From positions 1 through 32,547 of IMG/VR virus record IMGVR_UViG_2718217787_000004: a DNA stretch of 32,547 nucleotides; one strand, written 5' to 3'. Source of the stretch: a virus. Taxonomy: Duplodnaviria; Heunggongvirae; Uroviricota; Caudoviricetes. Made by a program: the position numbers. This document shows positions 3,001 through 6,000 of this stretch, piece by piece. Position 1 is the stretch's first letter; each line of letters starts with the position of its first letter.

Positions 3001-6000
3001 TATTCACGATGAATTGTTAACCAGTCTTTTGACCGGAGTGGGGCGACGTTGTTTCGTTTTGCCCAAAGTGTGCGAGAGCGGGCGCAATTTGCCCGGACTC
3101 AGGAGCGATCTGATTTGTCATGAACCATAAAGTGTATTTGGTGAATTGTGGGGTCTGCAGGATGTTCATCATGACATCTGTTGGAGGTGTTGAACGACCA
3201 CTTTCATAGTAACTCAGCGTGCCATACGGAACCCCTGTTAAATCAGCAAGTTGTTGTCTGCTCAAATACTCTGATTTTCGCATTAAGACTATCTTCTCGC
3301 TTATCGTGTTTGACATGGTGTTTAGATCTCAATAGTATTTAGTTTAGATGTAGATTGTTTAGTGCTTGGATGTGGGCACTAAAAGGCATTATAAGGCATT
3401 AAACGCAATTCATGAGGGCTGGAGGACGACATGAGCAAGCAAGTAACACTCATGACTGATGCGATTCCTTATCAGGAGTTCGCAAAACTAATAGGAAAAT
3501 CGACAGGAGCGGTTCGTCGGATGATCGATAAAGGAAAGCTGCCTGTAATTGATATGACCGATCCACAATCAGCTTCAGGTCGTGCAGGTGAATATTGGGT
3601 ATATCTTCCGGCATGGAATAACGGACTAAAACTGGCTTATGAAAGCCGCCCTAAAGAGATTCGTGACGGCTGGTTGATGTGGTTAGGTCTTGGTGAACCA
3701 CGTTAAGGAGAACCGTATGAATGAGCCTCGTTGTATTGCTCAGTTATTGCGTAACGAAAGCCCCAGGGCGATTGACTTCACCATCACCCACGGTAAGGGG
3801 CGTAAGGGAATCATTATCCGCACCAAAAAACAGAGTCCGTTAAAAAAGGTTCTGACCTTTCTGAAAAGCCGGAGGGTATGGAAATGACAGTGATGACGCT
3901 CAATCTCGTTGAAAAACAGCCAGCAACTATGCGCCGGATAATTGGTAAGCATCTTGCCGTTCCTCGCTGGCAGGATACATGTGATTATTATAATCAGATG
4001 ATGGAGCGCGAACGGTTAACGGTTTGCTTTCATGCTCAGTTAAAACAGCGTCACGCAACGATGCGTTTTGAAGAAATGAACGATGTCGAACGTGAACGGC
4101 TGGTTTGTGCAATTGATGAATTGCGCGGGGCATTCTCAAAACGCCGTCAGGTTGGCGCAAGTGAGTATGCATATATTAGTTTTTTAACAGTCAGTCAGCG
4201 TCGCACTTTATTTATGCACGCACGACTGACAGAAAAAGAATTTAACCAGCCATACTGGCGAATTAATGAAGAGTCATGTTACTGGCGTGATGCTTTATTC
4301 CGTGCATTACGTGAATTATTCAGCCTGTTTGAGTATGCACCGACAATTCTGACGTCGGTAAAACCAGAGCAATATCTGCATTAAATAATTAACCAGAGTT
4401 TTTAACGCACTTAATCGTGCGGGGCTTCTTTTTGCCTGGAGAAAGTCATGCATACAGTTTCTGAAAATCAGTGCGGTAAATACGCATTACTGCTGCAACA
4501 GGCCAGAACCGAAGCACAGGCCGACGCTGCGACGCGCTTTTCTTCTCATCTTGACGCCATGATTCGCCATATCACAAAGGCGGAGTTATCCCGCGTGGAG
4601 ATAGTCGAGCTGCTCAGTCAGGAGTCGGAAAAATTTCACAATATCGGATTGTCTCGCGGGGAGGTGCTTTGATGTCCTGTTCTCATTCAGTTGTATTACT
4701 GAATAACGCCTTAAAAATCGCCGTTATGGAAAATGGTGATTTATCTCTTATTCAACTTTGTCTTGATAAAGAAAAACGCGACATAACTGAATCTGTTATC
4801 GCGATTTATCAGAATGAATTAAACCTCCTGTCTGATATGGTCAATTTACTTGTTAAACGCGCTGTGTTCCACAAGCAAATTTCCTCAGTGGATGAACTGA
4901 CAAAATTAACGACAGAACTCGCCAGTTATTGCGCTGATGTATCCAGGAAACTTAACGATAAAAGGAGCTGATAATGCCGGACAACGTAGATTTTATTCAG
5001 GAACAACAGGCTGAATTACTGGAGCGCCAGATTAACGCGGCAAGGGTAAAACATTGCGGTGTTTCTGCGCTGGTTTGCGAAGAGTGTGACGCGCCAATAC
5101 CTGCTGCCCGTCGTGCGGCTTATCCGTCAGCCACGCGTTGTGTTTCCTGCCAGTCAGTCTTTGAAGCAAAAAACAAGCATTACCGGAGAATGGCATGAGT
5201 ATTCGTATTGAAATTGGCGAACGTTATGTCGTTACCAGTGACAGCTTTCAGTTTATTCTCCACGAGAAAAAGAGAGCGGAAAGCGGTAAAAACGCCGGTC
5301 AGGAATGGCTGGCGGTGGTTGGTTATTACCCGAAATTAAGCCAGCTCGTTTCCGGCCTGATGCATCACGATATTCTGACCGGAAGCGCAAAGTCTTTTGC
5401 TGATTTAAACGCGCAGGTTGAGCAACTCAGCAAGCGTTGTTCAGAGGCTTTTGGCTCATATGGCCGTTAAAGCCTCCGGGCGTTTTGTCCCTCCGTCAGC
5501 ATTTGCTGCAGGCACTGGTAAGGCGTTTACCGGTGCTTATGCATGGAACGCGCCACGCGAGGCCGTCGGGCGCGAAAGACCCCTTACACGTGACGAGATG
5601 CGTCAGGTGCAAGGTGTTTTATCCACGATTAACCGCCTGCCTTACTTTTTGCGCTCGCTGTTTACTTCACGCTATGACTACATCCGGCGCAATAAAAGCC
5701 CGGTGCACGGGTTTTATTTCCTCACATCCACTTTTCAGCGTCGTTTATGGCCGCGCATTGAGCGCGTGAATCAGCGCCATGAAATGAACACCGACGCGTC
5801 GTTGCTGTTTCTGGCAGAGCGCGACCAGTATGCGCGCCTGCCGGGAATGAATGACAAGGAGCTGAAAAAGTTTGCCGCCCGAATCTCATCGCAGCTTTTC
5901 ATGATGTATGAGGAACTCTGCGATGCCTGGGTGGATGCGCATGGCGAAAAAGAATCGCTGTTTACGGATGAGGCGCAGGCACATCTGTATGGTCATGTTG

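Follow-up and report, generated by a model that had tools for sequence, protein, structure and literature searches.

The closest characterised relative of the protein described here is Orf82 of bacteriophage P2, which Gopalkrishnan et al. 2022 (mBio 13:e00952-22, PMC9239242) purified as one of five homologues of TraR. In their assays P2 Orf82 was about as effective as TraR in competing against labelled DksA for E. coli RNA polymerase (RNAP), the half-maximal value being 0.65-1 µM, and because the two proteins compete for the enzyme P2 Orf82 can be placed at the same secondary-channel site as DksA. The rrnB P1 promoter was inhibited with an IC50 of 250 nM with no ppGpp present, the thrABC and argI promoters were activated by about 2-4 fold, and induced P2 Orf82 restored growth on minimal medium to cells with a dksA deletion. 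Inhibition of rRNA promoters was the effect conserved in all five homologues. The same paper cites an earlier report (Liu et al. 1993) that growth stops on overexpression of Orf82. The literature that we searched contained no description of an orf82-deletion phenotype in P2.

TraR of the F plasmid (PDB 5W1S, 6N57/6N58) is encoded in a conjugative transfer operon and, like P2 Orf82, acts independently of ppGpp; its potency at rrnB P1 is about 50 nM, making P2 Orf82 about 5-fold less potent. Arg residues 48 and 49 of TraR touch the rim helices and the β′ Si3 insertion of the polymerase, and the aspartates D3 and D6 are needed for activity of both TraR and lambda Orf73 (PMC9239242). Lambda Orf73 is itself a TraR homologue, from the early region of a phage of a different family, that binds RNAP and inhibits rRNA and ribosomal-protein promoters in the manner of P2 Orf82. 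It contains the full DxxDxA motif and has TraR-like potency, yet it activates thrABC, argI and rpoH P3 hardly or not at all, the first two being promoters that P2 Orf82 does activate, and it serves as the model for the proposed benefit to a phage, namely a larger burst and slowed growth of the host (PMC9239242). E. coli itself encodes DksA, a protein of 151 residues with a long coiled coil that needs ppGpp for full activity, and YbiI (PDB 2KGO), a short zinc-finger protein of the DksA/TraR family, 88 residues in length, from a chromosomal gene.

The prophage and its orf82 operon

The window that we have analysed is a stretch of 32,547 nucleotides (IMG/VR record IMGVR_UViG_2718217787_000004), the first 12 kb of which are 100% identical to chromosomal DNA of MB41-1, a strain of E. 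coli O157:H7. Over the 4.5 kb around the gene of interest the DNA is 96.8% identical to the early region of bacteriophage P2, and the order of genes in the window, int, C, Pe/Pc, cox, orf78, B, orf80, orf81, orf82, orf83, A, is that of the annotated P2 genome. The sequence identifies the gene as orf82, here part of a P2-like E. coli O157:H7 prophage whose cargo is cdt-V (cytolethal distending toxin type V). In MB41-1 a RefSeq coding sequence with the exact coordinates of orf82 is listed as WP_001113269.1, 'TraR/DksA family transcriptional regulator'. A first-pass annotation of the window had reported at this place an open reading frame of 74 codons with a C-x2-C-x17-C-x2-C motif, lying among small early genes between B and A; the frame and motif proved correct in every detail when compared with the ORF list and a regular-expression search, and the location is borne out by gene order and by the P2 annotation. 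The full translation of 74 residues reads MPDNVDFIQEQQAELLERQINAARVKHCGVSALVCEECDAPIPAARRAAYPSATRCVSCQSVFEAKNKHYRRMA, and coordinates are collected in Table 1.

Table 1. Positions in the window of orf82, its signals and functional codons, and of other features of the prophage
Feature	Position	Strand	Basis or remark
orf82 coding sequence, 74 aa + stop (start ATG 4974, stop TGA 5196-5198)	4974-5198	+	ORF list, sequence, profiles, RefSeq CDS
Ribosome-binding site AGGAG	4963-4967	+	Read in sequence; 6 nt before the orf82 ATG, within the 3' end of orf81
ATGA, overlap of orf82 stop and orf83 start	5195-5198	+	Sequence, annotated CDS ends
C4 zinc-finger (globular) domain, C35, C38, C56, C59	5076-5150	+	Motif check, Pfam match, invariant columns
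Codons of D3-N-V-D6, N-terminal aspartates of DxxDxA	4980-4991	+	Alignments
Codons of R46, R47 (= TraR R48, R49)	5109-5114	+	Alignments
Early promoter Pe, TTGACA, 17 nt spacer, TAGTAT	3310-3338	+	Consensus scan; coincides with annotated P2 -35/-10
Weak terminator-like hairpin, B/orf80 gap	4406-4433	+	Scan match 4406-4421 plus tail
orf78, 56 aa	3717-3887		Annotated
orf81	4672-4971	+	Pfam DUF5405, 103.6 bits
orf83	5195-5470	+	Pfam DUF5405, 51 bits
Host yegS	1-900	-	Left junction (1-2901)
Host yegR	1306-1623	+	Left junction
P2-type integrase	1888-2901	-	Left junction
cdtC, cdtB, cdtA	7833-9975	-	Cytolethal distending toxin type V
Spacer upstream of cdtA	9976-10753		AT-rich
Likely invertible tail-fibre segment	23308-25885
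Inverted repeats, 27 nt	23308-23334 and 25210-25236		81% complementary
Tail-fibre assembly gene	24387-24839	-
Alternative fibre C-terminus	24851-25264	-
Serine invertase gene	25286-25885		Resolvase/HTH_7
Ogr/Delta late-gene activator	32266-32547	+	PF04606, 76.1 bits; truncated by window end

Only 2 nt separate the stop codon of orf81 (TGA, 4969-4971) from the start of orf82, and the ATGA overlap at the other end of the gene probably reflects translational coupling of orf82 and orf83 in a tightly packed operon. The annotated -35 and -10 hexamers of P2 Pe, mapped onto the window, fall on those of the consensus scan, and expression of orf82 from this promoter is stated in PMC9239242. The hairpin in the gap between B and orf80 corresponds to a 'putative rho-independent terminator' of the P2 annotation; if functional, this putative element might attenuate transcription into the orf80-A region and in this way lower the expression of orf82.

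The genes on either side, orf81 and orf83, match the same Pfam family and are therefore paralogues; both carry the PHROGs family name 'replication initiation protein', and the slots they occupy are filled by other genes in 186-like and Klebsiella relatives. The small gene orf78 has no Pfam match. In the ORF list B, orf81 and A begin at upstream alternatives (ATG 3878, TTG 4669 and TTG 5418, respectively), with starts at 3884, 4672 and 5460 according to the RefSeq and P2 annotations. A PADLOC search gave no match for orf80, orf81, orf82 or orf83, so that a known defence-system component was rejected as an identity for these genes.

Orf82 of the window and P2 Orf82 (AAD03304.1) are identical at 72 of 74 residues (97.3%), the differences being A30V and T73M, and at the DNA level there are three synonymous changes in addition. 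Position 30 varies among homologues (V, A, P or I) and position 73 belongs to the variable C-terminal tail. Since both positions vary and the functional residues are retained, we infer that the A30V/T73M variant would behave as P2 Orf82 does. The same protein, with 100% identity, is encoded by Yersinia phage vB_YpM_22, and copies of orf82 with at least 95% DNA identity are present in 1601 of 5426 complete E. coli genomes. More distantly, a TraR-like gene follows the DUF2732 gene (orf80) and lies upstream of A in 186-like phages (Eganvirus), in Kapieceevirus and in Salmonella P2-like phages, with genes between it and A that differ from phage to phage (a methyltransferase, an exonuclease, small ORFs). 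Judged by this gene order, the TraR-like gene is a conserved early gene of Peduoviridae.

As to the remainder of the prophage, the left junction presents host yegS and yegR followed by the P2-type integrase, so that the prophage adjoins yegR. The cdt genes occupy the slot that holds orf91, tin and old in P2, flanked by A (replication) on one side and the cos/portal region on the other, where the cargo of the present prophage is cdt-V instead; the roughly 780 bp upstream of cdtA are AT-rich and contain no long ORF. In other E. coli genomes the slot with the same flanks contains FRG-domain, TIR-domain, AAA ATPase or reverse-transcriptase genes, contents that fit the P2 'hotspot' for defence cargo described in a preprint (bioRxiv 10.1101/2021.01.21.427644). 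A close relative, phage fiAA91-ss, comes from O157:H7. Further along, a tail-fibre segment bounded by imperfect inverted repeats, with an alternative fibre C-terminus and a tail-fibre assembly gene on the minus strand and a serine invertase gene after it, is likely invertible; segment and invertase resemble the Gin/Cin/Hin host-range switches. The Ogr/Delta activator at the right end of the window is a second C4 zinc-finger regulator of the same prophage and is unrelated to Orf82. No Rfam family was found across the whole window at gathering thresholds.

Membership in the TraR subfamily

The assignment of Orf82 to a family rests on sequence profiles. Pfam PF01258 (zf-dskA_traR) matches residues 34-64 with 43.9 bits against a gathering score of 24.9 (E = 2.4e-11), and the NCBIfam model TIGR02419 (C4_traR_proteo), entitled 'phage/conjugal plasmid C-4 type zinc finger protein, TraR family', gives 78.0 bits against a cut-off of 59.7 (E = 5.8e-22), in an alignment that takes residues 3-64 of the protein over positions 1-64 of the 64 in the profile. 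PHROG 54, 'DksA-like zinc-finger protein', is matched over the full length (E = 7e-33). The closest PDB sequences are the TraR chains 5w1s_M and 6n57_M of TraR-RNAP complexes (E about 3e-10), followed by YbiI (E = 2.2e-7, residues 4-66), with DksA marginal (1tjl_A, E = 0.13). These profile and sequence matches place the relationship far beyond chance, and no Pfam family besides PF01258 is matched at E ≤ 0.01.

The first-pass label for the protein, 'TraR/DksA-type', was sound as to the zinc-finger family, where both PF01258 and TIGR02419 score above their curated thresholds, and it holds for the short TraR subfamily but not for DksA proper. The DksA model TIGR02420 reaches 19.7 bits where 115.5 are required and NF033459 reaches 27.4 of 105, with the zinc-finger part alone being aligned, and Orf82 also lacks the long coiled coil of DksA. 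Because the TraR-family profiles pass while the DksA equivalogs fall far below their cut-offs, the protein belongs to the short TraR branch, and its profile matches make Orf82 a member of the subfamily described by TIGR02419 and PF01258. Its size is in keeping with the class of about 70-75 residues in which one N-terminal helix stands where DksA has its coiled coil, and it aligns end to end with the 73 residues of TraR. It is a subfamily member and not a TraR orthologue, since it scores 45 bits with the TraR equivalog NF010268 against a cut-off of 108; with the YbiI equivalog (NF008243) it likewise stays below cut-off, at 46.8 versus 96 bits. Several phage records name a homologue of Orf82 'TraR/YbiI family protein'.

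We have also predicted the structure of Orf82 with AlphaFold2 from the single sequence. The model is of low confidence (pLDDT 61.8, pTM 0.35) and was used for the order of secondary structure elements alone, which runs from a predicted long N-terminal helix (5-27) through short zinc-ribbon strands to a C-terminal helix (59-70), in agreement with the three elements of TraR. When this low-confidence model was compared with the PDB using Foldseek, TraR (6n57_M) ranked at the top with a non-significant score (E = 0.024, TM 0.35), followed by YbiI and DksA proteins.

Functional residues and proposed action on RNA polymerase

The zinc-finger motif C..C.{17}C..C was located by regular expression at residues 35-59 of Orf82, CEECDAPIPAARRAAYPSATRCVSC; a fifth cysteine, C28, lies outside of it. 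We aligned Orf82 with TraR, with P2 Orf82 and with four distant homologues from Peduoviridae (46-50% identity; 186-like, Kapieceevirus or Salmonella phages). No variation occurs at D3, D6, any of the four cysteines, P41-I42-P43, R46, R47 or K68-H69-Y70. The aspartates D3 and D6, in an N-terminus that reads M-P-D3-N-V-D6, are thus unchanged between Orf82, TraR and all five of the Peduoviridae homologues. P2 Orf82 has the same position in its operon and is identical at D3, D6, I8, all cysteines, R46 and R47.

TraR and Orf82 are 39% identical and have the same three-part layout, sharing D3, D6, the CxxC-x17-CxxC finger, the RR pair and the KHY of the C-terminal helix. They differ in that Orf82 comes from a phage early operon rather than a transfer operon, in a gap of two residues in the linker after the N-terminal helix, and at position 8, where the motif of Orf82 reads DNVDFI with Ile in place of the Ala of DxxDxA. 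Compared with DksA, Orf82 has the zinc-finger family PF01258 in common and aspartates analogous to those of the acidic DksA tip, and competition by P2 Orf82 indicates the same site on RNAP (PMC9239242); the size, the coiled coil and the requirement for ppGpp set DksA apart.

Ile8 is common to the window protein and P2 Orf82, and three of the four distant homologues aligned have Ala here. The absence of A8 from P2 Orf82 was noted by Gopalkrishnan et al., who give it as a possible reason for the roughly 5-fold lower potency relative to TraR in vitro (PMC9239242). Ala at this position is conserved in the TraR subfamily without strictly defining it, and since P2 Orf82 shares the Ile and retains activity, though at lower potency, the residue is no bar to membership. 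It is conceivable that Ile8, fixed in P2-type Orf82 where most 186-like relatives have Ala, represents an adaptive tuning rather than a defect, one that weakens inhibition of rRNA promoters while keeping activation, producing a selectivity unlike that of TraR or lambda Orf73 that may extend to phage, P4 or cdt promoters; we regard this as unlikely.

Taken together, the best overall explanation, to which we assign a probability of about 93%, is that orf82 of this P2-type prophage encodes a TraR-family protein that binds RNAP and alters host promoters. Transcription from Pe would depend on the absence of the C repressor, and so belong to lytic growth rather than to the stable lysogen. The protein would then enter the secondary channel of RNAP without contacting DNA. 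By homology to TraR we infer the contacts at the level of residues: the N-terminal helix would bring D3 and D6 toward the active site, the rim helices and the β′ Si3 insertion would bear the C4 zinc domain, in which R46 and R47 lie, and the C-terminal helix would touch the β Si1 insertion. Binding would change the conformation of the polymerase, such that inhibition would fall on rRNA and ribosomal-protein promoters, whose open complexes are short-lived, and stimulation on some others (thrABC, argI), with no need for ppGpp. The phage would likely gain from this in that host RNAP and resources would go into making phage instead of ribosomes, an advantage suggested by analogy with lambda Orf73, the only one of these proteins for which it has been shown.

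The first-pass annotation had gone as far as a candidate modulator of host RNAP. Both an effect on rrn transcription and binding to RNAP are published for the 97% identical P2 Orf82 (PMC9239242), so that the regulator part of this proposal stands; 'candidate' does not, for the protein is an already annotated and biochemically characterised phage protein. The finding is thus a known one, as an annotation and as a protein studied in vitro.

Competing readings and significance

The location of orf82 between the replication genes B and A, together with the PHROGs label 'replication initiation protein' on its two flanking genes, could be taken to mean that Orf82 is mainly a replication accessory or DNA-binding zinc-finger protein acting at the P2 origin together with B, A and the two flanking gene products, Orf81 and Orf83, and DNA-binding proteins do often contain small C4 zinc ribbons. 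The labels of the neighbours are names of families rather than of demonstrated functions, however, and Pfam has both genes as DUF5405, and Orf82 is without a second Pfam match that might point to such a role. Over its full length it matches the TraR subfamily, the members of which, according to the abstract of PMC9239242, do not bind DNA in order to act, and in that study purified P2 Orf82 binds RNAP and regulates promoters with no phage DNA present. We consider a role in replication very improbable. Still less weight, in fact next to none, can be given to an Ogr/Delta-type activator acting through the α subunit of RNAP. The small size of Orf82, its C4 zinc finger and its origin in a P2-like phage would suit such an activator, and a true Ogr gene does occur in the same window, but that gene scores 76.1 bits with PF04606 while Orf82 gives no Ogr_Delta match at E ≤ 0.01, and the cysteine spacing and flanking helices of Orf82 fit TraR. 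The profile searches have already refuted membership of Orf82 in this family.

A different question is which promoters matter. Orf82 might act on RNAP as TraR does and yet have P2 late, Pe/Pc, P4 or cdt promoters as its relevant targets rather than those of host ribosomal genes. In line with this, TraR is described in a section title of PMC9239242 as a strong activator of F-plasmid promoters on which conjugation depends, the authors of that paper allow for some homologues acting on the promoters of the phage that encodes them, and P2 Orf82, unlike lambda Orf73, activates some promoters by 2-4 fold. On the other hand, the lambda promoters tested were unaffected by lambda Orf73, inhibition of rRNA promoters is the effect conserved in all five homologues (PMC9239242), and late transcription in P2 is known to depend on Ogr, which is encoded at the right end of the window. 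Such targets in place of host ribosomal promoters are, in our judgement, quite unlikely; as an addition, regulation of phage or cargo promoters would be a refinement that is compatible with an action on host promoters, the two not being mutually exclusive.

With regard to the preferred explanation, a TraR-family protein that binds RNAP and alters host promoters, the copy of orf82 in the window adds no new biology, as it is one of more than 1600 near-identical copies whose prototype has been characterised biochemically. Its significance is that of the group to which it belongs: through TraR-like proteins plasmids and phages impose on their host a stringent-response-like reprogramming of transcription without ppGpp.
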